Part shown: piece by piece, positions 10,858 to 32,712 of the stretch | Position numbering within the stretch: position 1 is the first letter of the stretch | Layout: each line of letters opens with the position of its first letter | From: an uncultured Alphaproteobacteria bacterium | GTDB lineage: Bacteria; Pseudomonadota; Alphaproteobacteria; CACIAM-22H2 | Assembly (NCBI GenBank): GCA_963748455.1 | Contig: CAVVJD010000014.1 | Coordinates: forward strand, 445,993-509,992 | Direction of reading: 5' to 3' | Length of the DNA stretch: 64,000 bases | The notes under the pieces: generated by a model | The model's database searches: none | Told to the model about the DNA's origin: nothing | The model's input: only the letters and a program-made list of their open reading frames with translations | Translations under genes and position numbers: made by a program

Positions 10858-11010
10858 CTGCATCACCCCCCACCCTAACCCTCCCCCTCAAGGGGGGAGG
10901 GCATTCCATCGCAAAGGTGGCGTCGGTCTGTCTCAGAAATAGAACAGCCCTAAATCCGCTCACATTCTGATTCCCTCCCCCCTTGAGGGGGAGGGTTAGG
11001 GTGGGGGGTG
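10858..11010. repeat. Hairpin-forming intergenic palindromic element (MITE/REP-like), GGGAGGGTTAGGGTGGGGGG family.
   Basis: CACCCCCCACCCTAACCCTCCCCCTCAAGGGGGGAGGGC ... CCCTCCCCCCTTGAGGGGGAGGGTTAGGGTGGGGGGTG are inverted arms around a 60-bp spacer. Located between convergent genes. Confidence 0.8.
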
Positions 11011-11052
11011 ACACAGGCGCAGTGCCTCAAGCCGAAGCGCGTGCAGCCACCC

Positions 11053-11433
11053 TCACTCCCACACATTCCCCTTCTCCTGCAGATCCGGTCGCTGCGGCTT
11101 CACCACGCAGAACCGATGCCCGCTGGGCGCCTCCAGCACCACCCAGCGCGGGAAATCCTGCACGCGCTTGGCGCCGAGTTTCTCCAGCCGCGCCACTTCC
11201 GCCGCCTGGTCGTCGGTCTCGATGTCGAGATGCACGCGGCTGTCATGGTCGACACGTTGCAGCTGGATCGTGGCTTCGTCCTCGGGCCCGATGAGGGTGA
11301 TGTATTTCCCGGCATCACCGGGCTTGGGCGGCTGGATCTTGTAGCCCAGCGCCTCGCTCCAGAATTTGGCCTGCTTGGGCAAATCATCGGTCCGGCAGTC
11401 GATGATCAGCGTGCCGAGACGGCTCTTGTGCAT
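11053..11433 (-). CDS. VOC-family (glyoxalase/bleomycin-resistance fold) protein.
   Basis: About 125 aa with a glyoxalase-like beta-alpha-beta-beta-beta pattern (GTLIIDCRTDDLPKQAKFWSEALGY...). ATG at 11433 with GGAGAG RBS. Confidence 0.65.
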   Translation of the reverse strand: MHKSRLGTLIIDCRTDDLPKQAKFWSEALGYKIQPPKPGDAGKYITLIGPEDEATIQLQRVDHDSRVHLDIETDDQAAEVARLEKLGAKRVQDFPRWVVLEAPSGHRFCVVKPQRPDLQEKGNVWE

Positions 11434-11555
11434 GTCCCTCTCCTTCCAAAGTCCCGACGCATTAATAGCCAACCGTCTGGGCATCGTCATGTGACAATGA
11501 GGATGCTATGCTCGAACAACCTGCAGGGGAATGTACCAGCGCCGCCACAGCCGAC

Positions 11556-12273
11556 GATGTCCGATCCGAAAAAATCTCCCGATGAGAAAGGCGGGCTCGA
11601 CGAGGCGCCGCATTATCTGGGGCACCGGCAGCGGCTGCGCGAGCGCTTCCGCGCGGCCGGCGGCGCCGGGCTCCCCGATTACGAGCTGATCGAGCTGCTG
11701 CTGTTCGCCGCGATCCCGCGGCGCGACGTCAAGCCGCTGGCGAAGACGCTCGAGAAGAGCTTCGGCGGGTTTGCCGGACTGATTTCAGCGTCGCGCGAGC
11801 GCCTCGAAGCGGCGGGGCTCGGCGACAGCGCCATTGACCTGCTCAAAATCGTGCGCGAGGCGGCGGTGCGGCTGGCGCGGGAGGAAATGACGGAGCAGCC
11901 GGCGATGGGCTCGTTCCAGAAGGTGCTCGATTACTGCCGCACCGACATGGCGCATGCCGGCGTCGAGCATTTCCGCCTGCTCTTCCTCGACCGCAAGAAC
12001 AAGGTGATCGGCGACGAGGTGCAGCAGCGCGGCACGGTCGATCACACGCCGGTCTATCCGCGCGAGGTGGTGAAGCGCGCGCTGGAGCTTGGCGCCTCGG
12101 CCATCATCATGGTGCACAATCACCCGAGCGGAGATCCCTCACCTTCCAAGGCCGATATCGAAATGACGCGCGAGGTGGTGAAAGCGGCAGCCGCGCTCGG
12201 CGTGGCGGTGCATGACCACCTGATCATCGGCAAGCGCGGACACTCCAGCCTCAAGAGCATGGGGCTCTTGTGA
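11556..12273 (+). CDS. radC: RadC-family JAB-domain protein.
   Basis: HNHPSGDPSPSKADIEMTR JAMM motif. N-terminal HhH-like region LPDYELIELLL. Confidence 0.85.
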
Positions 12274-12344
12274 TCCGTCACCGGTTCGGGCTAATTCCCG
12301 GACCCTGCCATGCCGCTTCCCTTCCCGCTTCAGGAGGACGGTCT

Positions 12345-12992
12345 ATGCCCAAGCTTCGCGTTCACGGCTTTTCCATTTCCCTCGACGGCTACGGCGCCGG
12401 CCCCAACCAGAGCCTCGACAACCCGCTCGGCGTCGGCGGTGAGGCGCTGCATGAATGGACCGTTGCCACGTGCACCTTTCAGAAAATGGTCGGCAAAGAC
12501 AGTGGTACAACGGGGACAGATGACGATTTCACAGCGCGTGGGTTTGAAGACATCGGCGCCTGGATCCTGGGCCGCAACATGTTCGGGCCAGTGCGCGGAC
12601 CGTGGCCCGACGAGAGATGGAAAGGCTGGTGGGGCGACAATCCGCCTTATCACGTGCCCGTCTTCGTGCTGACCCATCACGCCAGGGCGCCGATCACCAT
12701 GGAGGGCGGCACCGTTTTCCATTTCGTGACCGACGGCATCCACGCCGCGCTGAAGCGCGCCAGCGAGGCCGCGAAAGGTCAGGATATCCGGCTGGGCGGC
12801 GGGGCTGCGACCATCCAGCAATATCTGCGCGCGGGTCTCATCGACGAGATGCATCTGGCGATCTCGCCGATCCTCCTGGGATCAGGCGAGGCGCTGTTTG
12901 CGGGCATCGACGCCCACACGCTCGGCTATCGATGCATCGAACACGTTGCCACGGCGAGCGCGACGCATGTCGTTCTCGCCATGCGCGGATGA
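12345..12992 (+). CDS. Dihydrofolate-reductase-family (RibD C-terminal domain) protein.
   Basis: MPKLRVHGFSISLDGYGAG... and GGGAATIQQYLRAGLIDEMHLAISPILLGSG are typical of the RibD_C/DHFR-like family. Good RBS AGGAGG. Confidence 0.75.
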   Translation: MPKLRVHGFSISLDGYGAGPNQSLDNPLGVGGEALHEWTVATCTFQKMVGKDSGTTGTDDDFTARGFEDIGAWILGRNMFGPVRGPWPDERWKGWWGDNPPYHVPVFVLTHHARAPITMEGGTVFHFVTDGIHAALKRASEAAKGQDIRLGGGAATIQQYLRAGLIDEMHLAISPILLGSGEALFAGIDAHTLGYRCIEHVATASATHVVLAMRG

Positions 12993-12998
12993 AGGCTC

Positions 12999-14214
12999 TT
13001 CAGCGCGTCGCATTCTTGACAAGAGGGCACTTGCTCTCGGACAGCGGCCATACGGTTTCCTCGGGCGCGATCTTGCGCACGATCTCGAAGTAGTCCCACG
13101 GATACTTGGACTCCGCCGGTTTCTTCACCCGCGCGAGATACATCGTGCGCGTGACACGGCCGTCCTCGCGGATGCGCGCGTTCTCCGAAAAGATGTCATC
13201 GATCGGATCGCGCGCATCGCGGCCGCAACCTTGTCGGCATCGTCGGTGCCGGCCTTGGCGATCGCCTTGAGATAGTGGCGCACCGCGCCATAGACGCCCG
13301 CGTGCAGCATCGAGGGCATGATGCCGGTCTTGGCCATGAACTGCTTCGACCAGGCGCGTGTCGCGTCATTCGTGTCCCAATAGGACGCGGTGGTGAGATA
13401 CGTGCCCTGCGCGGCGCTAAGCCCGAGCGCGTGCACGTCCTGGAGGAAAAAGATCAGCGCCGCGAGGCTTTGTCCGCCTTGCACGAGGCCGAACTCGGCC
13501 GCCTGCTTCATCGCGGTGATGGTGTCGTTGCCCGCATTGGCGATGCCGATCACCTTGGCGCCGGACGATTGCGCCCGGAGCAGGAACGAGGAGAAATCCG
13601 CGGTGTTGAGCGGGTGGCGCGCGGCGCCCAGCACCTGGCCCCCCGCTGCGGTGATGACTTTGGTCGCATCGCTTCTGGAGCTGATGCCCGAACGCATAGT
13701 CCGAGGCGAGGATGAACCACGACGTTCCGCCCGCCTTCACCACTGCCGAGGCCGTCCCGTGCGACACCGCATAGGTGTCGTATGTCCAATGGAAGCCGTA
13801 GGGCGAGCACTGCTCGTTCGTAAGCGCGGTCGTGCCCGCGCCGGAATAGAGCACGATCCGCTTCTGCTCGCGCGCAAGATTCTGGATCGCGAGCGCCACG
13901 CCCGAATTCGGCACGTCGACAATCGCATCGACGCCTTCGACATCGAGCCAGCGCCGCGCGATCGAGAGGCCGACATCGGCCTTGTGCAGATGATCCGCCG
14001 AGATCACCTGCACCGGCTTGCCGAGCACCATGCCGCCGACTTCCTGGATCGCCATCTCGGCCGCGACGACCGATCCCTTGCCGGTGATGTCGGCGGTCAC
14101 GCCCGCAAGGTCGGTCAGGACGCCGATCTTGACGACATCGCCGCTGATCTGGGCCTGTGCCGCGATGGGAAGCATTGCGGCGAACAGGGCCGCGCCGAAC
14201 ATGTTCAGCCTCAT
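12999..14214 (-). pseudogene. Branched-chain amino acid ABC transporter substrate-binding protein (LivK-like), two frameshifts (near 13210 and 13700).
   Basis: Three consecutive minus-strand frames encode the N-terminal (signal + VKIGVLTDLAGV...), middle (IGIANAGNDTITAMKQAAEFGL...) and C-terminal (RIREDGRVTRTMYLARVKKPAESKYPWDYFEIV) parts of one LIV-binding protein. A single missing G in gcgcgcgatcc restores the last junction. Confidence 0.7.
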
Positions 14215-14245
14215 CTCTCGTTTCCTCCGATGTCCGTATCGTTGT

Positions 14246-15193
14246 TCAGCAGTTGTTCGCGTCGAGCCAGGCGAGGATCATCGCGGCGAGGTCGTCGCTG
14301 TTGTCCTCGATCATCATCATGTGGCCATTGCCGTGGACGCCGCGGTCGGGCAGCCACGTGAAATCGGCGCCGAGATAGTTGGCGGTGGCTCCATCGACCG
14401 CGCGTGGATGGCGCGGGTCGTGGTCGCCCGTGACGATCAGCACGCGGTGGCCGCTGAGGTTCTTGGGATCGCGGATCTTCAGTCCACGTCCACCGATATT
14501 GAAGCGCTCGTTCAGGATACGCGCGCTCTCCGGCACGATCGAGCGGCAATAGTTTTCAAACGTATGCCGGGGGAAGCGCGGTGCGTTCGCCCAAAAGCTT
14601 GCCGCGAATTCTGTGCCCAGCCAGACCGGCTTGTCTTCGACGGAATAGACTGGGCAGCCCGCGCCCGCGTCGTCGCGCAGCGCCAGGATGGCGGCCGGAT
14701 CGTCTGGCAGGTCTCTCAACAGGTTCGCCGGCGGGCCGGGCGCGATGCCGATAACCGCTGCCACGAGGTCGGGGCGTTGCTCCGTCATCCACCACGCCAT
14801 CGGGCCGCTCGCCGAATGCGCGAGCAGTACCGCGGGTCCGATCTCCTCAAGAAGAGCGAGGAGCGAGGCGGCGACATCCGCGGCCCCAAGCTTCGGAAAG
14901 TCCGGACGCATGGGCGAGCGGCCATGGCCGGGCCAATCGGGCACAAACACGTCGCGGCCGCTTGCCGCGAAACGCGGCGCCCAGCCAGGCCGAAGGTCCG
15001 GGGTCGCCATATAGCAGGTGCCCGTATGGCCCCCGCCGTGCACCATCACGACCGGCGTCTTGTTCGCGATGTCTCCACGCGCGCGCACATGATCCACATA
15101 GATCGGATGGGCGTCCGTTCCGGAATATAGACACAGTGGCGCATCCTCGGGCGATGCGCGCAGGCGCCCATGCCAAGCCGGCACGGCATCCAT
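14246..15193 (-). CDS. Alpha/beta-hydrolase fold protein.
   Basis: VVMVHGGGHTG ... LLAHSASGPMAW (GxSxG nucleophile elbow) ... catalytic His near the C-terminus. Confidence 0.8.
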   Translation of the reverse strand: MDAVPAWHGRLRASPEDAPLCLYSGTDAHPIYVDHVRARGDIANKTPVVMVHGGGHTGTCYMATPDLRPGWAPRFAASGRDVFVPDWPGHGRSPMRPDFPKLGAADVAASLLALLEEIGPAVLLAHSASGPMAWWMTEQRPDLVAAVIGIAPGPPANLLRDLPDDPAAILALRDDAGAGCPVYSVEDKPVWLGTEFAASFWANAPRFPRHTFENYCRSIVPESARILNERFNIGGRGLKIRDPKNLSGHRVLIVTGDHDPRHPRAVDGATANYLGADFTWLPDRGVHGNGHMMMIEDNSDDLAAMILAWLDANNC

Positions 15194-15286
15194 GCGATCC
15201 TCCCAAACCGACGGTGTTGATCGTTCTTGCGTTGTAGGGGGCGATGCTAAGATGGCGGCCCCAGAGATGCAAGCAGAAAGTCACAT

Positions 15287-15817
15287 ATGAGACTATCTCG
15301 GAAAGCGAAGAAAACCGCGTCCACGCCAGACGCGCGGAAAAGCACGGCGAACGAAGTCGCCGGCGTGCTCAACGGCACGGAGATCAAGATCGCCTACAAG
15401 ATGGGCTATGTGCTGAACTTCTACCGGGAACCGTCGTTCCGAAAGATCGAAATGGAGCTCGGCCTGACACGGCCCGAGATCGTCACGCTGATCTTCCTGA
15501 ATTTCCGCGAGGGCGTGACCGCAAGCGACATCTGCGAGTTCACCGGTCACCTCAAGGCCAATATCAGCCGCGGGATCATTGCGCTGGAAAACAAGAAACT
15601 GTTGCGCCGTGAGGCTGACCCAGCCGACAACCGGCGCCAGCACCTGTTCATCACGCCGGCCGGCCGCGCCCTCTATGCGCAGTACATCCCGGCCTTGCGC
15701 GAGCGCGAGCGCGCAATGCTGGCGTGCCTCACGCGATCCGAGTGCAAGGCGTTCGAGCGCCTGCTCGACAAGCTCGCCGGCCACGTGCCGATCTGGGCGG
15801 CACCCAGCGAGCTGTGA
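15287..15817 (+). CDS. MarR-family transcriptional regulator.
   Basis: Winged-HTH region TRPEIVTLIFLNFREGVTASDICEFTGHLKANISRGIIALENKKLLRRE. Confidence 0.8.
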   Translation: MRLSRKAKKTASTPDARKSTANEVAGVLNGTEIKIAYKMGYVLNFYREPSFRKIEMELGLTRPEIVTLIFLNFREGVTASDICEFTGHLKANISRGIIALENKKLLRREADPADNRRQHLFITPAGRALYAQYIPALRERERAMLACLTRSECKAFERLLDKLAGHVPIWAAPSEL

Positions 15818-15887
15818 CCGCGCCCCGCGTATCGCGTTCCGTCAGCGCGGATATTTGCGCCTTATACGCATGGGAATTGTTGGATGA

Positions 15888-15975
15888 TCAGCCCGTGGCC
15901 GATGCCGATGCGGCGCGCGCCACGAGGAAGGCCGCAATCAGCAGCGGCGCCAGGCACTCGATCGGTGCCACACAC
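15888..15975 (-). pseudogene. Remnant: 3'-terminal about 88 bp (last about 29 codons) of a GAF-domain gene, paralogous to the 3' end of the intact GAF gene at 20461..20961.
   Basis: Encodes ...EECVAPIECLAPLLIAAFLVARAASASATG*, versus ...EEHVAPIERLAPLLIPAFLVARAASSSTRR* in the intact gene. Nucleotide identity is about 80% over the block, with no similarity beyond it. Confidence 0.75.
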
Positions 15976-15991
15976 TCCTCACGCCTCCGCT

Positions 15992-17632
15992 TCACTCCGG
16001 TATCCCGGCTCTGCGCAGCCCCTCTATGTAAAGCTCCAGTTGCTCCGGGTTTTTTACATAGAAGAGGCGCTTGCGCGCGAAGTTGCAGGCGAAATCCGGC
16101 TTGCGCTGCAGCAGGTCGCCGATTGCCACGCGCAAGTCTTCCGAACATTCCAAGTGCCCCAGGGCCGCGACACGGTGGGCGAACGCCCAATAATGCGCAT
16201 TGGGCACCCGCGTGGCTTTCTGGGCCCATTCGCTGGCCAGCTCGAATTCCCGCGCAAAAATGTGCGCAAGCGCTCCATAAGAGTAGAACGCCCAACGCAA
16301 GGGATCATAAGGGCTCAGCTCGATCGCCCTCTGGAAATAGGGGATCGCCTCGCTGATGCGCCCCTCGTAAACCAGCGAGTCGCCGAGACCGCAATAGCTC
16401 GCCGCAAGACACGGGTTCAGCTCGACCGCCGTTTCCAGCTCGGCTAGCGCGTCTCCATATGCCTTCCCGGCAAGCAGCGCGCGCCCGTACATGAACCGGA
16501 TCAATCCATCCTGGTCGTCGAGCTCGACGCCTTTCCTCCCAATCGCAATGGCCTCGGTGAGCCGCTCTTCGTTCGGCTCGGCCTCGAAATAAACCATGCT
16601 CAGGACGATCGCATAGGACAGGTACCCATAAGCCTCAGCCAGATTGGGGTCGAGTTCCATGGCGCGGCGAAACAGCCGCTGCGCTTCCAGATTGTCCGCA
16701 GGAGTTGATTTGTAAAAGTGTTTCGTCCCAAGCCGGAAAAAGTCCCACGCGTGCAGCGCCGGCACAGCTTTTCGCTCGACGCGCTGCCGCTCGGCCGCGC
16801 CAATCTCGGGCTCGATCCGCGCCGCGATCGTGGTTGTGATTTCGTCTTGTACCTGGAAGAGATCCTGCAGATCGCGGTCGTACCGCTCCGCCCAGAGTTG
16901 CCGGCCGCCTTCGGTCTCCACCAGCTGCGCGGTCATGCGCACGCGCTGCCCGATCTTGCGCACACTGCCCTCGACCAGGTACTCGGCGCCGAGCGTCAAG
17001 CCGACGCGGCGCACATCGCCCCCGCCGCCCTTGAAAGCGAAGCTCGAATTGCGGGCGATCACCACCAGGGACCGGTACTTGGACAAAGCGGTAATGATGT
17101 CTTCCGCGATTCCGTCAGAGAAATATTCTTGCTCTGGATCGCCGCTTAAATTGTTGAACGGCAGTACCGCAACGGACGGCCGTCCGCTCCAATTTAGGGG
17201 AGCGCCTGAGTTGACGGCGCCGAGAGCTTTGTCCGCGACGGCGTCGCCCCCCGCTCCGGGAATAGGTTCAGCGGACACTGCTCGAGTTTGTTCTGGCGAG
17301 CGGCCATTTCCATCTGTCTCAACTCCGCTGCGAACCTCGCCCACAAATCGGAAGCCCTTTCGGGCATAGGTCTTGATCAGAGACTGCTGCTCGCCGCTGT
17401 CCCCCACAGCCTTGCGGGCCGCGGTGATCCGACTGGTCAGGGTTGAATCCGATATGATCCGGCCATCCCAGACCGCCGCGATCAGGTCGTCCTTGGTCAC
17501 CACGCGTTCTCGGTTCTGCACCAAAAAGAGCAGCACATCGAACACCTGCGGCTCGAGCGAGATCGGCTCCTCGCCCCGCCGAAGCTCTCGCCTTCGGCCG
17601 TCCAGGACATAGCCACCAAAACAGAGTTGCAA
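15992..17632 (-). CDS. Winged-helix (OmpR/CadC-type) DNA-binding protein fused to a TolB-N-like domain and TPR repeats.
   Basis: N-terminal trans_reg_C-like region (LEPQVFDVLLFLVQNRERVVTKDDLIAAVWDG...KGFRFV), central VAVLPFNNLSGDPEQEYFSDGIAEDIIT domain, C-terminal TPR-like helices. Confidence 0.8.
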   Translation of the reverse strand: MQLCFGGYVLDGRRRELRRGEEPISLEPQVFDVLLFLVQNRERVVTKDDLIAAVWDGRIISDSTLTSRITAARKAVGDSGEQQSLIKTYARKGFRFVGEVRSGVETDGNGRSPEQTRAVSAEPIPGAGGDAVADKALGAVNSGAPLNWSGRPSVAVLPFNNLSGDPEQEYFSDGIAEDIITALSKYRSLVVIARNSSFAFKGGGGDVRRVGLTLGAEYLVEGSVRKIGQRVRMTAQLVETEGGRQLWAERYDRDLQDLFQVQDEITTTIAARIEPEIGAAERQRVERKAVPALHAWDFFRLGTKHFYKSTPADNLEAQRLFRRAMELDPNLAEAYGYLSYAIVLSMVYFEAEPNEERLTEAIAIGRKGVELDDQDGLIRFMYGRALLAGKAYGDALAELETAVELNPCLAASYCGLGDSLVYEGRISEAIPYFQRAIELSPYDPLRWAFYSYGALAHIFAREFELASEWAQKATRVPNAHYWAFAHRVAALGHLECSEDLRVAIGDLLQRKPDFACNFARKRLFYVKNPEQLELYIEGLRRAGIPE

Positions 17633-17894
17633 GCACCCCTCCTCAGGGCCGCAAGGCAGTTCTCGGGCGAAAATCAGGCCCGTCTCGCGAGCAAATCAAG
17701 CGTCTCTTCAGGCTTTCGGCCCGGCGCTGCGGCATCCTGCCTCGGATCGGTCGCGCGTCGCGTGACCGGCTTCACATGACTGGCGCTGAAGGGAGGATAC
17801 CATGTTCGATGCCCACAGTCCGGCCCGCCTCAAGAACACCGTTATCGATGTCGAATTCCATTGTAGGCAGCCAAGGGCGCTCGGCTGCGCGGCG

Positions 17895-18413
17895 ATGTGG
17901 GACGCGCTCAAACCGCTAGCCGCGGCGTTCAGAATCGGGTTGAGCACCTTGGCCCTCGGACTCGCCATTGCGGCCACCACTTCCGCTCCGGAAGCACGGG
18001 CCCAGGCCGCTGATGGGCATACCATTCTGACCGCCGGCGACATCAAATGGTCGCCCGCCCCGCCCTCATTACCTGCGGGGGCGCAGGCGGCCGTGCTGTA
18101 TGGAGACCCGGGCAAAGACGGTCTATTTGCCCTTCGGCTCAGGCTCCCCAAGGGTTACGCCATCGCGCCGCATACGCACCCAAAACCAGAAATCGTCACC
18201 GTAATTTCGGGGACGTTCCGGCTGGGTATGGGGGAGCGTGCCGACGCAAGCAAGGGCCAGCCTCTTACGGCAGGCAGTTTCTTTGCACTTCACCCAGGCA
18301 TGGCGCATTTCGCCTTCGCCGACGAGGATACGGTCATCCAGCTCAACAGCGCCGGGCCGTGGACACTCGTTTACGTCAATCCAAACGACGATCCGCGCAA
18401 GAAGACCCAGTAG
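17895..18413 (+). CDS. Secreted cupin-domain protein.
   Basis: Signal peptide (LAAAFRIGLSTLALGLAIAATTSAPEARA) followed by the cupin motif G..AIAPHTHPKPEIVTVISG. Confidence 0.75.
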   Translation: MWDALKPLAAAFRIGLSTLALGLAIAATTSAPEARAQAADGHTILTAGDIKWSPAPPSLPAGAQAAVLYGDPGKDGLFALRLRLPKGYAIAPHTHPKPEIVTVISGTFRLGMGERADASKGQPLTAGSFFALHPGMAHFAFADEDTVIQLNSAGPWTLVYVNPNDDPRKKTQ

Positions 18414-18504
18414 ACACATCCGCGAAGCTGCCCGTCTGCAGTTCATCGGGTCGAGCGGCGCTGTCCATATCGCCTCAACAAGCAATTCAAACAGGAGAAA
18501 CCAC

Positions 18505-18873
18505 GTGCCTGAATCCTCACGAGAGCTGGTCGTACTTATGACACATGGCGCCGATCATGAACTCTCCTCGGTCGCCTTCACGATCGCGAATGGCGGCATG
18601 ACGGCGGGCCTAAGGGTTTCCGCATTCTTGACCAGCGCCGCGGTCGATCTGGTGCGAAAGCGCGCCATCGACAGCACGGTCGTGCCCCCGCTCGAACCGC
18701 TCGCATCCTTGGTGAAGGACTTTCTCGCGCGCGGCGGCCGCCTGTGGGCATGCACACCTTGCGTGAAGGCCCGCGGCTACGAGCAGAGCGACCTCATCGA
18801 GGGCGTGGAGATCGCCGGGTCCAGCAAAATACACGAGCTGATCAAGGCCGGAGCCGCGACGCTCAGCTTTTGA
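18505..18873 (+). CDS. DsrE/DsrF-like (YchN-fold) sulfur-carrier family protein.
   Basis: About 122 aa. GTG start 6 nt after AGGAG. DsrE-like core with conserved Cys context LWACTPC. Confidence 0.65.
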   Translation: MPESSRELVVLMTHGADHELSSVAFTIANGGMTAGLRVSAFLTSAAVDLVRKRAIDSTVVPPLEPLASLVKDFLARGGRLWACTPCVKARGYEQSDLIEGVEIAGSSKIHELIKAGAATLSF

Positions 18874-18960
18874 CGCTCGAATTGCCGCCTCACGGCTCCA
18901 AAGGCGTGCGGCACTCACGGACGGGAAATCCACCCAGATTCACAATAAGGAGCTCCGACA

Positions 18961-19737
18961 ATGACCACGATCTCGGCTTTCGATCCAAAGGAACTCGAAT
19001 CCAAGGTGAAAGCGATGTACCGCAGCGTCGCCGAGGACCCGCACGGAGAGTTCCACTTCGAGATGGGCCGCGCGATGGCAGAACGTCTCGGCTACGTACC
19101 AGCAGACCTCGACCGCATACCCGCCGAGGCGATCGAGTCATTTGCCGGCGTCGGCTACTACTTTCATCTCGCCGATCTCAAGCCGGGCGAAATGGTCGTC
19201 GATCTCGGTAGCGGATCGGGGATGGACACGTTCATTGCCGCGCTGAAAGTGGGCTCCCGCGGAAAAGTCACCGGCGTCGATATGACGGACGAGCAGCGAG
19301 CAAAGGCAGAGCGGCTGCGGGACCGGGACGGCTTCCTCAATGTGACTTACGTCAAGGGCTATATCGAGGAAGCTCCCCTGCCGGACGGCCTCGCCGACGT
19401 TGTGATCAGCAACGGCGTCATCAATCTCGCCACGGACAAATCGAAAGTGTTCCGCGAAGCCGGGCGGCTGCTGAAATCAGGCGGCCGGTTCGCGATCTCC
19501 GATATCGTGACGGAGGTGCAGCTGCCCGAAAGCATCGTGTGCAATTCAACCCTCTGGGCCGCCTGCATCGGAGGCGCCGCGCAGCAGGACAATTATCGCC
19601 AGATGATCGAGGCGGCCGGACTACGTCTGGTCAAGGTGGAAGACAATCCGCAATATCAGTTCATCTCCGACAACGCCAAGGGCGCGAGCAAAAAGTTCGG
19701 CGTGAAGAGCATCTCGTTGCTGGCCGTCAAACCTTAA
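18961..19737 (+). CDS. ArsM/UbiE-like class I SAM-dependent methyltransferase; ArsM homolog lacking the As(III)-binding cysteines.
   Basis: Strong resemblance to arsenite methyltransferase cores (GEMVVDLGSGSGMD...VDMTDEQ...VISNGVINL...GGRFAISDIV). The ArsM cysteines are replaced (NGVINL instead of NCVINL) and there is no N-terminal CC pair. Confidence 0.7.
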   Translation: MTTISAFDPKELESKVKAMYRSVAEDPHGEFHFEMGRAMAERLGYVPADLDRIPAEAIESFAGVGYYFHLADLKPGEMVVDLGSGSGMDTFIAALKVGSRGKVTGVDMTDEQRAKAERLRDRDGFLNVTYVKGYIEEAPLPDGLADVVISNGVINLATDKSKVFREAGRLLKSGGRFAISDIVTEVQLPESIVCNSTLWAACIGGAAQQDNYRQMIEAAGLRLVKVEDNPQYQFISDNAKGASKKFGVKSISLLAVKP

Positions 19738-19752
19738 AGGATCGAAGGAAAA

Positions 19753-20439
19753 ATGCGCCAGGCGGAGACGACAGACGTCAACTTGATGCGGTTGTCGTCG
19801 GATCGAGGCCGAATGACCCTACCCGGCTTTTTCGAAGGGACTGGCATGCCCGATCCCGGTTGGTGGGAGGCACTTTTTCCCGATCCGGCCCGGGTGATCC
19901 GCGACGTCGGGGTCGCGCCGGGCATGAGGGTTGTGGACCTATGTTCCGGTGACGGCTGGTTCACGTTGCAATTGTCAAAGATTGCGCGAGCGGTAACCGC
20001 CATCGACATAGACGGCAAGATGCTTGAGAGGGCACGCGTCCGGCTGACCGAAATCGGCCTTACCAACTGCGTCTTCGTTGAGGCCAATGCTTACGACGTT
20101 GCCAAGGTCGTGCACGATCGTGTTGACCATGTGTTTCTGGCAAACGCATTCCACGGGGTGCCAGACAAGTCGCGGCTTGCACACGCCGTCCACGACGTTC
20201 TGAAGCCTGGCGGGACGTTTGCCGTCGTGAATTGGCACGCCCGGCCACGCGAGGAAACGACAATTCTAGGCGAACCCAGGGGGCCAGCGACGGAAATGCG
20301 GATGCGACCTGAAGAAACGATCGCAGCTATGCAGTCGAGCGGGCTTACATTTATGAGGCAAATCGAGGTCCCACCCTATCACTACGCGGTGGTGTTCAGG
20401 CGCAGGCATCCTTGCTTGAGAAGTATGGGAATCTTGTGA
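19753..20439 (+). CDS. Class I SAM-dependent methyltransferase.
   Basis: Motif I VVDLCSGDGWF and post-I acidic residue AIDID. Sits 15 nt after the previous methyltransferase gene, so likely co-transcribed. Confidence 0.75.
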   Translation: MRQAETTDVNLMRLSSDRGRMTLPGFFEGTGMPDPGWWEALFPDPARVIRDVGVAPGMRVVDLCSGDGWFTLQLSKIARAVTAIDIDGKMLERARVRLTEIGLTNCVFVEANAYDVAKVVHDRVDHVFLANAFHGVPDKSRLAHAVHDVLKPGGTFAVVNWHARPREETTILGEPRGPATEMRMRPEETIAAMQSSGLTFMRQIEVPPYHYAVVFRRRHPCLRSMGIL

Positions 20440-20460
20440 GCGAAAAATTCTGACGAGGGC

Positions 20461-20961
20461 TCAGCGCCTTGTCGAAGATGACGCGGCGCGAGCAACAAGG
20501 AAAGCCGGAATCAGCAGCGGCGCCAGGCGCTCGATCGGCGCCACATGCTCCTCGCGATAGTGGAATTCCGGGGCGAGCAGGTTCGCGGTGCCGATGACCT
20601 GGCCGTCATAGACCACCGGCACGTTGATGACCGAGCCCAGGCCCATGCTCTCGATCAGCGCGTGGTCGAAGAAGGCCCAGCGGATCGCCGCCTTGTCGCG
20701 GCCGAGGAAGGATTTCTGGCCTTTCATCACATGCTCGCCCCAGGGCGTGGGGCCCATCGGCTTGCGGCCGAAGACCGGATATTCCGCCGGGCGGTTGGAA
20801 TAGATGCGCGCCACTTCCTGGCCGTCGACATAGAGGAGCGTGAAAAGCTCGTGCCCAACGAGCCGCTTGGCCGTGGCGTCGAGGGCGCGGAAGAACGTCT
20901 CGGGCTGACCGGGCTCAGCCAACAGGCGCGACAAGGCGGCAAAGTCTTCAGGCATGGACAC
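20461..20961 (-). CDS. GAF-domain protein.
   Basis: About 165 aa single GAF-like domain. Its last about 29 codons are duplicated (diverged) at 15888..15975. Confidence 0.75.
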   Translation of the reverse strand: MSMPEDFAALSRLLAEPGQPETFFRALDATAKRLVGHELFTLLYVDGQEVARIYSNRPAEYPVFGRKPMGPTPWGEHVMKGQKSFLGRDKAAIRWAFFDHALIESMGLGSVINVPVVYDGQVIGTANLLAPEFHYREEHVAPIERLAPLLIPAFLVARAASSSTRR

Positions 20962-20968
20962 TCTCTTG

Positions 20969-21884
20969 TCAGGAATTGGAGGAAGCGGGCGTCGGTGCTT
21001 TGGGGATGCGCTCCGGCAGGAGACCTTGCGGGCGCAGATGCAGCACCAGGATGAGCGCCAGGCCGATCAGGATCTCGCGCAAGGCGGCGAGTTGCACGGG
21101 CTGGAGGCCGGGCAGCCACTCCGTAGCGAAACGCGTTGCCTCGAGGAAGATCACGACGATGTAAGCCCCGAACACGGCGCCGCTCGGGCGCCCGACGCCG
21201 CCGGCGGTGACCGCGAGGAAGATATAGATCGTGATCAGCGGCTGGAAATGATCGGGTGAGACATAGGACTGGAAATGCGCGTAGAGCGCGCCGGCCAGCG
21301 CCGCAATCGCCGCCGACAGCGCGAAAGCCTGCCATTTGAAGCGCAGCACCGGCTTGCCGGCGAAGGCGGCGAGCTGCTGATCCTCGCGGATCGCCTTCAT
21401 CGCGCGGCCATAGGGGGATCGGTCGAGCCGGCGCAGCAGCAGCCAGACCAGCACGACGATCGCCGTCACCAGAGCGAGATAGAACAGATTGAAGCCCTGC
21501 AGGCCGATCTGCGGCCTTGAAGGGCGCCTTGATGCCGGAGATGCCGTCCGAGCCCTTGGTCAGCCAGCGCTCGTTGAGCGCGATCAGGCGGATCACCTCG
21601 GCAAAGCCGAGGGTCACGATGGCCAGATAATCGTCGCGCAGGCGCAGCGTCGCGAAGGTGACGCAGAGCCCGACGACGGCGCCGACGACGAGGGCCGCGC
21701 CCCAGCCGAGCAGAACCGGCGCGCCCGCACCAGTCGCGATCGCGGAGGCATAGGCGCCGACGGCGAAGAAGCCAGCGAGGCCAAGATTGACCAAGCCCAC
21801 ACCACCCCAAATCAAATTGAGGCTGAGCGCCAGCAGCGCGTAGATGCCGCAGATCGTCAGGGTGAAAATCGCGTAGGACAGCAT
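20969..21884 (-). pseudogene. livM: Branched-chain amino acid ABC permease LivM-like, frameshift near 21500.
   Basis: N-terminal part (MLSYAIFTLTICGIYALLALSLNLIWGGVG...) and C-terminal part (TAIVVLVWLLLRRL...LHLRPQGLLPERIP) are in different frames. The junction reads IKAPFKA|PQIGLQGFNLFYLA after a 1-nt correction. Confidence 0.7.
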
Positions 21885-22747
21885 CAGGCCGCCCGCTCGC
21901 CGAGGATGCCGCGCGGGCGGAAGGTCAGCATGATCAGGATAGCGACGAAGCCGACCGCGGTTCGATAGGTGGCGGGCACGGCGATCAGCGCCAGCTCTTC
22001 CGCCACGCCCAGCGCGAGTGCCCCGACCACAGCGCCGGGGATCGAGCCTAGGCCGCCGAGCACGGCCGCCGCGAAGACCGACAGCAGCACGCGATAGCCG
22101 GTCAGCGGATCGATCGAGGTGTCGAGGCCGATCAGCACGCCGCCGATGCCGGCGAGGCCGGCGCCGAGAAAGACGGTGACGATGGCGATGCGGGCCGGAT
22201 CGATGCCCTTCAGCCGCGCCAAATCGGGATTGTCGGCGACGGCGCGCATCGCCTTGCCGAAGCGGGTGTAGAACAGGAAACGCGAACATCGCGGCCATGA
22301 TCGCGACCGCGAGGCCGAGACTCTGCAATTGCTGCGGCCCGATGCGCAGCTCGCCGAAGCGCAGATCGCGCAGCAGCGGCAAATCGTAACCCTTCATGTC
22401 GTTGCCGAAGACAAAGCGCACGATGTTCTCCAGCACGAGGTTGAGCGCGATCGAGGCGATGGCGACGATCAAGGCCCCGCTCCCGCGCAGCCGGCGCAAC
22501 GCCGTCTCCTCCGCGCCCACGCCGACGAACCCGGCGATTGCAAACGCGACCAGCAAGGCCGGAACGACGGCCAGGCCCAGGCTCGTATTGGCCCACCAGG
22601 CGGCGAAGGCGCCGATGGTGGCGTAGGACGCGATGGCGAAGTTGGGATAGCGCAGCACCGCGAAAATCGCGGTGAAGCCGATGGCCGGGACAGCGATCAG
22701 CGTCCCGGCCATCACGCCGTTGATCAGCGCCTGCAGCAGCAAAGTCA
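21884..22747 (-). pseudogene. livH: Branched-chain amino acid ABC permease LivH-like, frameshift near 22265.
   Basis: N-terminal part (VTLLLQALINGVMAGTLIAVPAIGFTAIFAVL...) and C-terminal part (FGKAMRAVADNPDLARLKGIDP...TFRPRGILGERAA) are in different frames. Stop overlaps the livM ATG. Confidence 0.7.
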
Positions 22748-22767
22748 CGTGCGAGCGATCCCCTTGC

Positions 22768-23980
22768 TCAGGCGATCTTGACGAACGCGATCTTGCCCCC
22801 TTGCACCTGCTCGTAGCGGAACTTGCAATCGCTGATGTCGCCGATGTCGGTGAAATCGCAGGGGCCGCTGGCGCCGTCGTAATCGACCGCCTGCTTGGCG
22901 GCGATCGCCTTGAGCCCGTCGACGGCATTGTCGATCTTGGCGCCGCCCGGCGCCTGGCTCACCTTACGGATATTGTCCTTGATGGCGCTGCCCGAGGCAT
23001 CCCCGGCCACGGCGATCGCCATCAGCACGAGATTGATGTGGTCGTAGATCTGCGTGGTGTAGGGATCGGGCGAGGCCACGCCGATCATCTTGACCAGCCG
23101 GTCATAGGCCTTCGAGCCTTCCGCCGGCGAGGGCGAGATCGTGAAGGTCTTGTCGACGACCTCGGCCGGCACGCTTTCGACCAGCTTCTGGTTGACGGAA
23201 TAGCCGAAGGCGATCTTCGTGCCCGGCGAAGCCGGCGCGGAACAGGTCTTTCAGCATCACGGCCGTGTCCGTGGTGTAGCCGCCGAGCACGACCGTATCG
23301 GGCTTGAAGCGCAGCAGCTCGTCGATCTCGGTGCGGTAGGCCGGCTTCTTGTCGTCGTAGATCAACGACGCGGTCTCGCCGCCGCCCTTCTTCATCGCCT
23401 CGGTGATGTTGTCGAACTGGCTCTTGGCGAACGGTGTTTGCGGCGAGAGGAAGAAGACGCGCTTGGCGCCCTGGGCCAGCGCGAACTCGCCGAATTTGCG
23501 GCCCTGCAGCGTGGTGTTGGGCTGCGTGCGGACGAGATAGCCCTGATGCGGCAGCAAGGTGATCGAATCAGCGCCCGAGACGGTGCAGAGGAAGGTCTTC
23601 GATTCCCAGCACAGCGGTGCGACCGCTGTCGTCACCGACGAGGCCCAGGTGCCGAGAATGGCCGAGACCTTGTCGACGTCGATGAGCTTGCGCGCGGCGC
23701 GCACGCCCGCTTCCGGATTGGTCTGGTCATCCTCGGAGATCAGCTCGACCTTGCGGCCGAGCACGCCGCCGGCCGCGTTGACCTCGTCCACCACGGCCTT
23801 GACCGCCTTCACCATGACCGGGCCATAGGGGCCACCCGAGCCGGTAAGCGGCGTCAGCGTGCCGATTTTGATCGGAGCACCTTGCGCGAGACCGCGCATC
23901 GGCATTGTGGAAACTCCGGCAAGGGCCGCGGCCCCGCCCAGCAGGAGGCGGCGATTGAGTGTCAGGTCGGTCATGGTCAT
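22768..23980 (-). pseudogene. LIV-type ABC transporter substrate-binding protein, frameshift near 23215.
   Basis: Signal peptide plus GAPIKIGTLTPLTGSGGPYG... in one frame; ...KIAFGYSVNQKLVESVPAEVVDKTFTISPSP...FRYEQVQGGKIAFVKIA in another. Removing one G from gccgggcacgaag restores AGTKIAFGY. Confidence 0.7.
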
Positions 23981-30149: not shown

Positions 30150-32473
30150 CTATTGCAAGGCCGCCCAAACCTTTGCCGGCGTCAGCGGCATCTGGATCCG
30201 GCTCGCGCGATCGGCCCGGCTGGCGCGGACGAGCGCATCGGCCACGGCGTTGACGACCGCCGGGGTGGCGCCGATCGTGCCGAGCTCGCCCACGCCTTTG
30301 ACACCGAGGGGGTTGTTCAGGCACGGCGTTGATTGATCGAGCACGTGCACGAAGTCACGAATGATGTCGGCGCGCGGCATTGTGTAGTCCATCAGGCTGG
30401 CGGTGATCGCCTGCCCGGACTCACGGTCGTACAGCATCCGCTCGCCGAGCGCCTGGCCGATGCCCTGGACCGCCCCGCCGTCGAGCTGGCCGCGCACGAT
30501 CATCGGATTGACCACGCGGCCGACATCGTTCACCGACACGTAGGAGACGATTTCGACCGTCCCGGTTTCCGGGTCGATTTCGACCTCGCAGATGTGGGCG
30601 CCATTGGGCCAGCTCGGCCCGTTCACCTTGGTTGTCGCATCGATGAAGATGCGTTGCTCCGGTTGACGCCCCGCCAACTCGAAAAGCCCGATGCGGCGGT
30701 CGGTGCCCGCGACCTGGAAGACGCCCTCGGCATATTCGATATCGGCCTCGGCGGCCTCGAGCGCGTCGCCGGCAAGATTGCGGCCGGTCTTGAGCGCCGT
30801 CTCGGAGGCGTGCCGGATGGCCGAGCCTGCCGTGAACAGCGAGCGCGAGCCGGCACTGCCGAAGCCCTGGCCGCGATCCGTGTCACCCATGACAATGCGG
30901 ATCTTGTCGAGCGGCACGCCGAACACATCAACGACAAGCTGCGTATAGGACGTCGCAATCCCCTGCCCCATCGGCATCGTCGCGGCAAAGACCTCGATCT
31001 CGCCGGCACCGGTGACCGCGACGGTGACGCGCTCCTCCAGCGCGTTGCCGCCGGTCCATTCGAGAAACGAGGCGAGGCCGCGGCCGCGCAGCTTGCCGCG
31101 CTGGCGCGAATTGCTTTCACGGGCCGCGAAATCCTGCCACTTCCCCAATTCCAGCGCCTGTTCGAGGATCGAGCCGAACTTCCCGCTGTCGTACACCTGC
31201 CCCATGGCGTTGGTGTAAGGCATCTGCTCCGGCTTGATGAGATTGCGGCGCCGGATCTCGGCCGGATCGAGGCCGAGCTTGCGTGCCGCGGTATCGAACA
31301 GACGCTCGATGATGTAGATCGCTTCGGGCCGGCCGGCGCCGCGATAGGCGCCGGTGGGTGCGGTGTTGGTCAGAACCGCGCGGAGATCGAAGTCAATCGT
31401 GCGGATGTCGTAGATGCTGGTCGAGACCCAAGGGCCGATCATCAACTGGATGATGATCGCCCGCCGTACTGCCATAGGCGCCGACATTGGCAAAGGAGCG
31501 GACGCGATAGGCCAGCACCTTGCCTTCGGCATCGAGGGCGAGTTCGGCGTGGCTCTCGACATCGCGGCCGTGCGTCGCGGCCAGAAATTCGTCGATCCGC
31601 TCGGCCGTCCACTTGACCGGGCGTTTTAGCTGCCGCGCGGCGAACGCCGCGACGATGTCCTCCGGATAGAGGCCGGTCTTCATGCCGAAACCGCCGCCGA
31701 CATCGTCGACAACGACGCGCACTTTCTCCGGCGGGATGCCGAGCACGGCATTGCAGAGCGTATCGCGCGCACCGGACGGCATCTGGCTCGACAGGCGTAG
31801 CGTCAGCCGGTCATCGCCCGAAATCGTAGCTGGCGAGCGTGCTGCGCGGCTCCATCGGGGTCGGCGCCAGGCGCTGGTTGACGAGATCGAGCGAGACAAT
31901 GTGCGCGGCGCTCTTGAACGCGGCATCGGACACCGCGGCGTCGCCGTGCTTCATCTGGGCGGCGATATTGCCGGTGGCGGCCGGCCAGATCAGCGGCGCA
32001 TCGGCGGCGGTCGCTTGCGCCACATCCATCACGACGGGCAGTGGGTCGAATTCGACCTCGATCGCCTCAGCCGCGTCCTTCGCCTGCTCGCGCGTTTCCG
32101 CGACCACCGCGGCGATGGCCTCGCCGACGAAGCGCACGATCTCGTGCGCCAGCGCCGGGCGCAGCGGCGTGGCGCCGGGCGAGCCGTCGGGACGCTTGAA
32201 GATCGGCGCCACCGGTAGCGGCTTGACCCCGGCCTTGACCAGATCGGCGCCGGTGAGGACCGCAACCACCCCGGGCATCGTCAGGGCCGCGGCGACATCA
32301 ACCGAGACCAGACGCGCATGGGCGTGCGGCGAGCGCAGGAAGGCGAGGTAGGTCTGGGCGGGCAGCGAGACATCGTCGGTGAAGCGGCCGGCGCCGGACA
32401 GCAGGCCCTTGTCCTCGATCCGAAGGACCTCGCGGCCGCTGCCAAAACGCCCGATCGTCGAATTGCCCGTCAT
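30150..32473 (-). pseudogene. Xanthine dehydrogenase/aldehyde oxidase-family molybdopterin-binding large subunit (CoxL-like), two frameshifts.
   Basis: Three consecutive ORFs (31811..32617, 31393..31926, 30150..31562) encode the N-terminal, middle and C-terminal parts of one about 770-aa Mo-hydroxylase. Shifts lie within 31811-31926 and 31393-31562. No adjacent small or medium subunit genes. Confidence 0.75.
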
Positions 32474-32712
32474 TAGCTTTTCCTCGATTTGCCAAACAGA
32501 ATCCCAGGACGCGCCCGCAAACCGGTCGCGCCGTGGCGCCCAAACGACCACGGCGCCTTGCCGCTGTCTACCCCCGCCCTTGCCCCGCGTTACATTTGGC
32601 TGCGGAACCGCCTGCAAAAGCGGCAGGACGTCGCCGGGCCGCCCTTGTGAGCGGGCGGGCGTTGGGTTACTCCCAGAGGGTCCGCACTCCTGGTGAAAGG
32701 TGCCGCGCGCCC

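Follow-up and report, generated by a model that had tools for sequence, protein, structure and literature searches.

A displaced gene tail as the probable scar of a module insertion at the end of a liv operon in an uncultured alphaproteobacterium

A 64,000 nt stretch of genome from an uncultured member of the Alphaproteobacteria (GTDB lineage CACIAM-22H2; assembly GCA_963748455.1, contig CAVVJD010000014.1, positions 445,993 to 509,992 of the forward strand), hereafter referred to as the window, harbours two copies of the 3' end of a GAF-domain gene. One copy terminates the intact gene, which closes an operon encoding a Liv-type transporter; the other is an isolated remnant, found on the far side of a block of five genes. 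The arrangement is probably a scar produced when this block, a module of about 4.5 kb, was spliced in within the tail of the GAF gene by one homologous exchange and one illegitimate joint. The remnant would accordingly be the original GAF tail of the lineage, displaced when the module entered at the end of the liv/GAF operon, and the resident gene would have been left intact with a hybrid tail, the displaced copy drifting neutrally thereafter. Positions below are those of the window.

The duplicated GAF tail

Four features carry the argument:

15888 to 15983, minus strand: remnant of the GAF 3' end, a pseudogene fragment comprising the last 31 codons and the stop codon with no upstream part, 81% identical to 20461 to 20556.
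20461 to 20556, minus strand: the other copy of the repeat, forming the end of the intact GAF gene, chimeric in appearance, with nt 1-53 (20556 to 20504) resembling the remnant and the last 26 nt (20486 to 20461) identical to the related locus L078.
20461 to 20961, minus strand: intact GAF-domain gene of 164 to 166 aa, depending on the choice of start codon, matching Pfam GAF_2; it closes a Liv-type ABC transporter operon.
15983 to 15991, minus strand: stub of module-native sequence downstream of a CadC-like gene, AGCGGAGGC, with the joint at 15983/15984 and one C common to both partners.

A first-pass annotation, made from the sequence alone, had proposed that a remnant of the GAF 3' end lies 4.5 kb from the intact gene, and this is borne out by an ungapped alignment between 15888-15983 and 20461-20556. 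The two form a direct repeat in which 78 of 96 positions agree (81.3%); the identity of about 80% originally given therefore stands, while the length, put at about 88 bp, is corrected to 96 nt. Both copies are on the minus strand and in the same frame, bracketing the block with a start-to-start distance of 4573 nt. Each starts exactly at a TGA stop codon, and the similarity ceases at codon 135/136 of the 166-codon GAF gene. The peptides quoted for the two copies, REECVAPIECLAPLLIAAFLVARAASASATG for the remnant and REEHVAPIERLAPLLIPAFLVARAASSSTRR for the terminus of the intact gene, proved correct on re-translation.

The repeat represents true homology, because in about 30 Bosea-like genomes the 3' end of GAF can be aligned with the remnant, at 72-81% identity, every alignment beginning exactly at 15983. 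These alignments, together with a local alignment score of 51 between the two copies, also exclude the low-complexity artefact that had been named as what would refute the observation: among approximately 1500 random 300-nt pieces of the window, such scores had a mean of 9.7, a standard deviation of 1.4 and a maximum of 16. In a repeat search of positions 12000-21500, the 96-nt pair was the top and largest family of direct repeats.

When synteny in relatives was inspected, as the annotation had suggested, the same junction of MarR gene, remnant and CadC-like gene was found in two independent ENA assemblies, L080 and L081, and an assembly artefact is therefore excluded. These two contigs, whose MarR proteins are 96% identical to that of the window, are collinear with positions 12717-16193 at 93.5% identity. 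Since they hold the same junction, the remnant must be older than the split between the window and L080/L081 lineages.

The product of the GAF gene matches Pfam GAF_2 (PF13185) over residues 25-149 with an E value of 5.9e-11 and 43.2 bits, against a cutoff of 28.6, and has 455 homologues at E <= 1e-30. The linkage between LivM and GAF is kept in most of 77 related loci, in Hyphomicrobiales and beyond. Nucleotide synteny with Bosea species runs from 26220 to 20483 and then ends, with nothing aligning past 20483 in either blastn or tblastx comparisons. The block is absent from Bosea-like genomes with the same liv-GAF operon, and none of its genes, nor MarR or RibD_C, lies within 10 kb of GAF among the 77 genome loci examined.

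The illegitimate joint

The remnant is truncated exactly where the block begins. Eight bases beyond it is the stop codon of the 546-aa CadC-like gene, co-oriented with the remnant (and convergent-looking), and nothing of the upstream part of GAF is present. The position of the joint can be read from five other copies of the module, in loci L078, L098, L099, L102 and L103. In all of these the CadC stop codon is followed by AGC(G/A)GAGGC(T/A)CCCTCGGATCGA(C), with the contexts diverging only afterwards, and the blastn matches of all five to the window finish at 15983. The window and L080 retain only the first nine of these native nucleotides and then pass directly into GAF codon 136. The joint is therefore placed at 15983/15984.

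A second type of junction is found in L078 (JGI 3300051851), the GAF gene of which is 94% identical to that of the window. This contig matches positions 22729-15983 at 95.3% identity, so it carries the same module beside GAF. Past the module it continues into a RibD_C gene (88% identical), with the sequence corresponding to window positions 12978-15982 missing. Between the two, 23 native nucleotides are kept and followed by CATCGGCATCAGCCGAGCGCTGA, a gap-free match at 19 of 23 positions to the last 23 nt of the window remnant; the alignment score of 15 was reached by none of 1000 shuffles. This short GAF tail ends 8 nt from the RibD_C stop codon. Reading the 31 nt of L078 at this place as the module's own downstream sequence was a weaker option, as the corresponding match to L098 scored 10, a value reached by 22 of 1000 shuffles. 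The suggestion that the remnant arrived together with the 3-kb segment encoding a binding protein, a hydrolase and MarR was likewise dropped, as L078 keeps its 23-nt GAF tail beside RibD_C.

Two junction types thus exist, one joining CadC plus 9 nt to a 96-nt tail (window and L080) and one joining CadC plus 23 nt to a 23-nt tail (L078), and neither can be derived from the other by a single deletion. At the other end of the region that varies between these loci, the last five codons of RibD_C are wholly different in the window (12978-12992) and in L078 (6792-6806), which places the left edge of the variable region inside the end of the RibD_C gene. The identity between window and L078 is 88% for RibD_C, against 95% for the module and the liv region.

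The chimeric tail of the intact gene

Where the remnant records the illegitimate joint, the intact tail may record the homologous exchange. If the repeat is numbered so that nt 1 lies at the truncation point and nt 96 in the stop codon, the affinities of the intact tail change along its length. Over nt 1-53 it has 3 differences from the parsimony ancestor of the two remnants (those of the window and of L080/L081) and 8 from the L078 intact tail. Over nt 75-96 it is identical to L078 and has 7 differences from the remnants. Between these, at nt 54-66 (20491-20503), there are four synonymous third-position differences that are absent from L078, L079 and all remnants, which suggests a short patch possibly originating from a third allele. 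A comparison of the reconstructed ancestral remnant with the intact tail gives 3 differences in the first 52 positions and 11 in the remaining 44 (Fisher's exact test, p ~0.01, with the cut chosen post hoc).

The density of mismatches between the window and L078 changes in the same place. It is about 1 per 100 nt over 19984-20487, spacer included, and past approximately 20487 it climbs to 13 over the following 100 nt, then levels off at about 6 per 100 nt through the liv genes. From the clustering of the tail differences and this jump at ~20487, we infer a recombination breakpoint within the duplicated stretch.

A single insertion event and the evidence against it

Taken together, the two joints would be accounted for if the donor was a relative with the module already in place, 21 nt past the end of its GAF gene, so that the incoming DNA brought a diverged GAF tail with it. 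One end of this DNA would have been joined by homologous exchange inside the last ~100 nt of GAF, as the chimeric tail implies; at the other, the ninth base after the CadC stop codon would have been fused to GAF codon 136, a joint made visible by the five other module copies.

Two forms of this process can be envisaged. In one, a re-circularised fragment with only ~96 nt of GAF homology would have undergone a Campbell-type single crossover, which necessarily duplicates the stretch of homology and falls within it. In the other, a linear fragment would have been integrated by homology-facilitated illegitimate recombination (HFIR), a route that allows a breakpoint in the repeat without predicting it. 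A breakpoint inside the repeat, read from few informative sites, slightly favours the Campbell-type crossover.

Several observations weigh against such an origin. For the chimeric tail, informative sites are few, with 14 differences across 96 nt, and the cut was set post hoc; gene conversion between the copies or a stronger constraint on the first 53 nt could mimic a chimera. To explain the differing junction of L078, one has to suppose two independent acquisitions or else a longer common ancestor that later underwent two deletions. No GAF gene followed by MarR or RibD_C without the module was found in the 77 genome loci, in 11 metagenome loci with MarR relatives or in the other contexts fetched, a sample in which close relatives are thin and represented by short metagenome contigs only; given that the empty site was not seen in any of these, the direction of events is one that we infer. 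Similarly, the presumed donor arrangement, GAF and module without a remnant, was not observed among the loci examined. Finally, the microhomology at the illegitimate joint amounts to 1 nt, the shared C at 15983. HFIR joints usually show 3-10 nt of microhomology, and in the E. coli study three of four HFIR joints were likewise without homology (PMC3240628).

Comparison with known systems

HFIR, defined as recombination with one homologous end and one illegitimate end, is known from Acinetobacter baylyi, Streptococcus pneumoniae and Pseudomonas stutzeri, and has also been put to the test by conjugation in E. coli (PMC3240628). In the latter, most recombinants were single crossovers of re-circularised, partly degraded DNA, which duplicated 109-950 bp of the end of lacZ (PMC3240628). 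The GAF locus resembles these cases in that a homologous exchange in an anchor gene and a non-homologous joint would together have brought foreign DNA beside the anchor and, as in the single-crossover variant, part of the anchor is duplicated (96 bp of the GAF end, compared with 109-950 bp of the lacZ end). The locus differs from the experimental cases in representing a natural, old event deduced from sequence alone, with an insert of 4.5 kb rather than roughly 1 kb and a microhomology of 1 nt.

A comparable displacement is described for the type VI secretion effector-immunity modules of Vibrio cholerae and for the orphan 3' arrays of Rhs and contact-dependent inhibition toxin loci, in which the old 3' end is shifted downstream, with HFIR as the suggested mechanism (PMC5361080). 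There too, a horizontally acquired module lies beside a conserved upstream anchor and the resident old 3' end persists as an orphan. The displaced parts in those systems include useful immunity genes, whereas the displaced part here is a 96-nt GAF tail of no evident use in a non-toxin locus.

The element is, on this reading, an ordinary recombination scar of a known kind. What it offers is a record, dated and resolved to the base, of the way in which a metal- or sulfur-related module has spread among soil Hyphomicrobiales without a dedicated recombinase, the probable route being homologous exchange within ~100 nt of diverged sequence combined with an illegitimate joint. Natural cases in which both joints can be identified are uncommon, and the view of both is unusually clean here.

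The module and its other contexts

The first-pass annotation placed a CadC/TPR regulator and an operon of cupin, DsrE and ArsM-like methyltransferase genes between the two GAF tails, and searches with Pfam and NCBIfam profiles confirm these assignments. The block and its immediate neighbours are as follows:

15992 to 17632, minus strand: CadC-like winged-helix and TPR regulator, 546 aa, the first module gene (Pfam Trans_reg_C and TPR; NCBIfam CadC over the N-terminal region only), with homologues of 86-97% identity in other contexts.
17802 to 18413, plus strand: secreted cupin/DUF4437 protein, 203 aa, module gene (Pfam DUF4437 and Cupin).
18505 to 18873, plus strand: DsrE-family protein, 122 aa, module gene (Pfam DsrE, E value 7.5e-15).
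18961 to 19737, plus strand: ArsM-like S-adenosylmethionine (SAM) methyltransferase, 258 aa, module gene (Pfam Methyltransf_31).
19753 to 20439, plus strand: second SAM methyltransferase, 228 aa (Pfam Methyltransf_25/11).
20440 to 20460, no strand: spacer of 21 nt separating the stop codons of GAF and the second methyltransferase gene, which are convergent; its sequence is unchanged in L078 and L079.
15287 to 15817, plus strand: MarR regulator beside the remnant, 70 nt from the remnant stop codon (Pfam MarR_2), part of a portable trio at 13125 to 15817.

The G+C content of the block is 58-64%, against 64-69% in its flanks. The ArsM-like protein scores 221 bits against the NCBIfam arsenite methyltransferase model NF008823, which is under the cutoff of 263, and a 122-aa gene is called at the DsrE position in L078, L097, L098 and L099.

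The block is a horizontally portable module. It is found at 85-93% nucleotide identity in at least four unrelated contexts, represented by L097 (Bradyrhizobium sp. 157), L098, L099-L102 and L103; the modules of L099, L100, L101 and L102 are 91-93% identical to that of the window. Homologues of the CadC-like gene (86-94% identity) adjoin the same genes for DsrE and methyltransferase, the cupin and second methyltransferase genes being present in some contexts and missing from others. In these other contexts, no GAF-like sequence is present at either end of the module and there is never an integrase. No plasmid in PLSDB carries the block, the similarity there being at gene level only, at 65-71%.

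The composition of the module varies between contexts. The cupin gene is intact in the window, L078 and L098, is called as a shorter, 169-aa gene in L102, has been cut to a 50-nt trace in L099-L101 (7636-7685 in L099; 4391-4440 in L100) and is absent from L097 (9695-10001). At its other end, homology between the module of the window and those of L099 and L100 finishes at 20403/20404 (~5653 in L099), at residue 217 of the 228 in the second methyltransferase; the C-terminal tails of this protein in the window and in L099/L100 are unrelated, so that one of the two reads into what was formerly flanking DNA.

The end of the module beyond CadC is a recurrent one. The sequence AGC(A/G)GAGGC(T/A)CCCTCGGATCGAC follows the stop codon at 6738-6760 in L078, 5001-5022 in L098, 9495-9517 in L099, 3192-3214 in L102 and 1645-1667 in L103. 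The flanks of L078 and L103 part at the same base, directly after GATCGAC, and L098 has about 9 further nt in common with L099 and L102, which share one context, before diverging. No recombinase gene lies near this recurrent end.

Alternative origins of the repeat

Among other ways in which the repeat could have arisen, an unlikely one is the decay of a paralogue, whereby two ancestral GAF genes flanked the block, or a tandem duplicate existed, and one of them was deleted down to its last 96 nt. The two copies are indeed 19% diverged, whereas sister contigs differ by 5-7%, and the differences in the conserved part are mostly synonymous, as would be expected of two genes that were both once functional. 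Yet there is no second GAF copy beside the module in the fetched loci, nor elsewhere in the window, and the remnant tail falls in the same narrow subclade (ARAAS.S...) as the resident gene, to which its first 53 nt are almost identical. Moreover, the remnant is truncated, precisely to the nucleotide, at the edge of a module that occurs elsewhere as a portable unit.

Duplication in situ, in which break repair or template switching copied 96 nt of the resident gene and all differences accumulated later, is improbable to a similar degree. It would need no diverged donor allele and would fit the near-identity that the first 53 nt still show. Against it stands the clustering of the differences, with 11 in the last 44 nt compared with 3 in the first 52 nt, and the fact that the intact copy agrees with L078 at all of its last 26 nt while about a third of these positions differ from the remnant. 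The remnants of the window and L080 are 7 nt apart, and a divergence of 25% in one half of the repeat would need a much older event than the other data indicate.

There is also a slim chance that the module is an integrase-free mobile cassette with a defined end, for which the GAF tail is a preferred landing site, reached through small circles that capture a piece of the target. In three or more separate contexts the module ends at ...CCCTCGGATCGAC. Given that the joints of L078 and of the window/L080 differ, the tail of liv-GAF would on such a reading have been entered at least twice independently.

Site-specific integration is less likely still. Surrogate 3' ends of target genes are carried by a number of integrative elements, such as e14 and phage 21 in the icd gene of E. 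coli and islands in tRNA and tmRNA genes; these elements bring an integrase gene with them and, as a rule, recombine at one constant core site. The locus has, superficially, the classic layout of an island that a tyrosine or serine recombinase has placed in the GAF 3' end, with the 96-nt copies as attL and attR: a direct repeat of the gene's 3' end brackets acquired DNA, and the target is kept intact with a partly foreign tail. A stretch of 35 nt that is identical between the L080 remnant and the window intact tail could represent a core, and the module end recurs at ...GGATCGAC in several contexts. However, none of the five block genes encodes a recombinase, and searches with Pfam and NCBIfam found no integrase, resolvase or transposase domain in these or in the other open reading frames (ORFs) scanned between ~3 and 33 kb. 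The module occurs in four or more other contexts without a GAF-like target fragment at either end, and a site-specific enzyme would not produce the difference between the window/L080 and L078 junctions. Insertion as a transposon or insertion sequence was rejected, the duplication being 96 nt long and diverged (against 2-14 bp for such elements), with no transposase and with no inverted repeats found at the block ends in the repeat search.

Decay of the remnant

The sequence of the remnant bears the marks of neutral decay, and it lacks a start codon. In the motif YREEHVAP the His is almost invariant among 60 homologues and is replaced by Arg in the L080 remnant and by Cys in that of the window, which has in addition exchanged a conserved Arg for Cys and the Pro of (I/V)PAFL for Ala. 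The window and L080 remnants differ at 7 nt, of which 5-6 are non-synonymous, affecting invariant residues; the two functional tails, those of the intact GAF genes of the window and L078, have 12 differences, of which 8 are synonymous. The remnant shared by L080 and L081 (REERVAPIERLAPLLIPAFLVARAASASVTR*) is nearer to the intact tail (82/96) than is that of the window (78/96). Because the invariant His and the conserved Arg and Pro have been replaced, the changes are mostly non-synonymous and only 23 nt survive in L078, the remnant is evolving free of purifying selection, as would a displaced tail that drifts neutrally.

That the remnant might instead be functional, whether by encoding a small peptide, by giving rise to a regulatory RNA or by acting as a terminator or insulator where MarR and CadC converge, is scarcely credible. 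It has been kept in three sampled genomes and one gene caller drew an ORF through it. This ORF, of 135 codons, runs into CadC in another frame and matches no Pfam family, and scans of the remnant returned no Rfam match, no promoter-like site and no terminator-like site; its substitutions, as described above, are mostly non-synonymous and fall on invariant residues, and the L078 version has only 23 nt. The sequence comparisons point to an inert, non-functional relic with no present function. For annotation, it follows that the called ORF extending through the remnant is spurious, and that the intact GAF protein is likely to have a hybrid C-terminus.

Neighbouring genes

To the left of the remnant lie genes for MarR, an alpha/beta hydrolase, a Peripla_BP_6 binding protein and a RibD_C protein. 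The first three form a trio (13125-15817) that is also found in several unrelated neighbourhoods without GAF (L083, L085 and L086-L092), where it is followed by a MIP channel gene, a gene for a 413-aa unknown protein and others. It is missing from the L078 locus, and may either have been inserted in the window lineage or lost in that of L078.

A number of genes in the window have split reading frames, at 13125-14214, 20969-21883, 21884-22750, 22768-23980 and 30150-32617. Relative to L080 and L078, indels of 1 nt are found at 13204 and 13672 in the binding protein of the trio, at 21509 in LivM and at 22281 in LivH; a second binding protein (22768-23980) and the large subunit of a molybdenum hydroxylase (30150-32617) are also fragmented. 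These splits reflect either indel errors in the assembly or pseudogenisation of the transporter to which the GAF gene belongs. Further upstream, a perfect direct repeat of 16 nt (12059-12074 and 12167-12182), with its copies 108 nt apart, lies inside a RadC-domain gene at 11008-12273.

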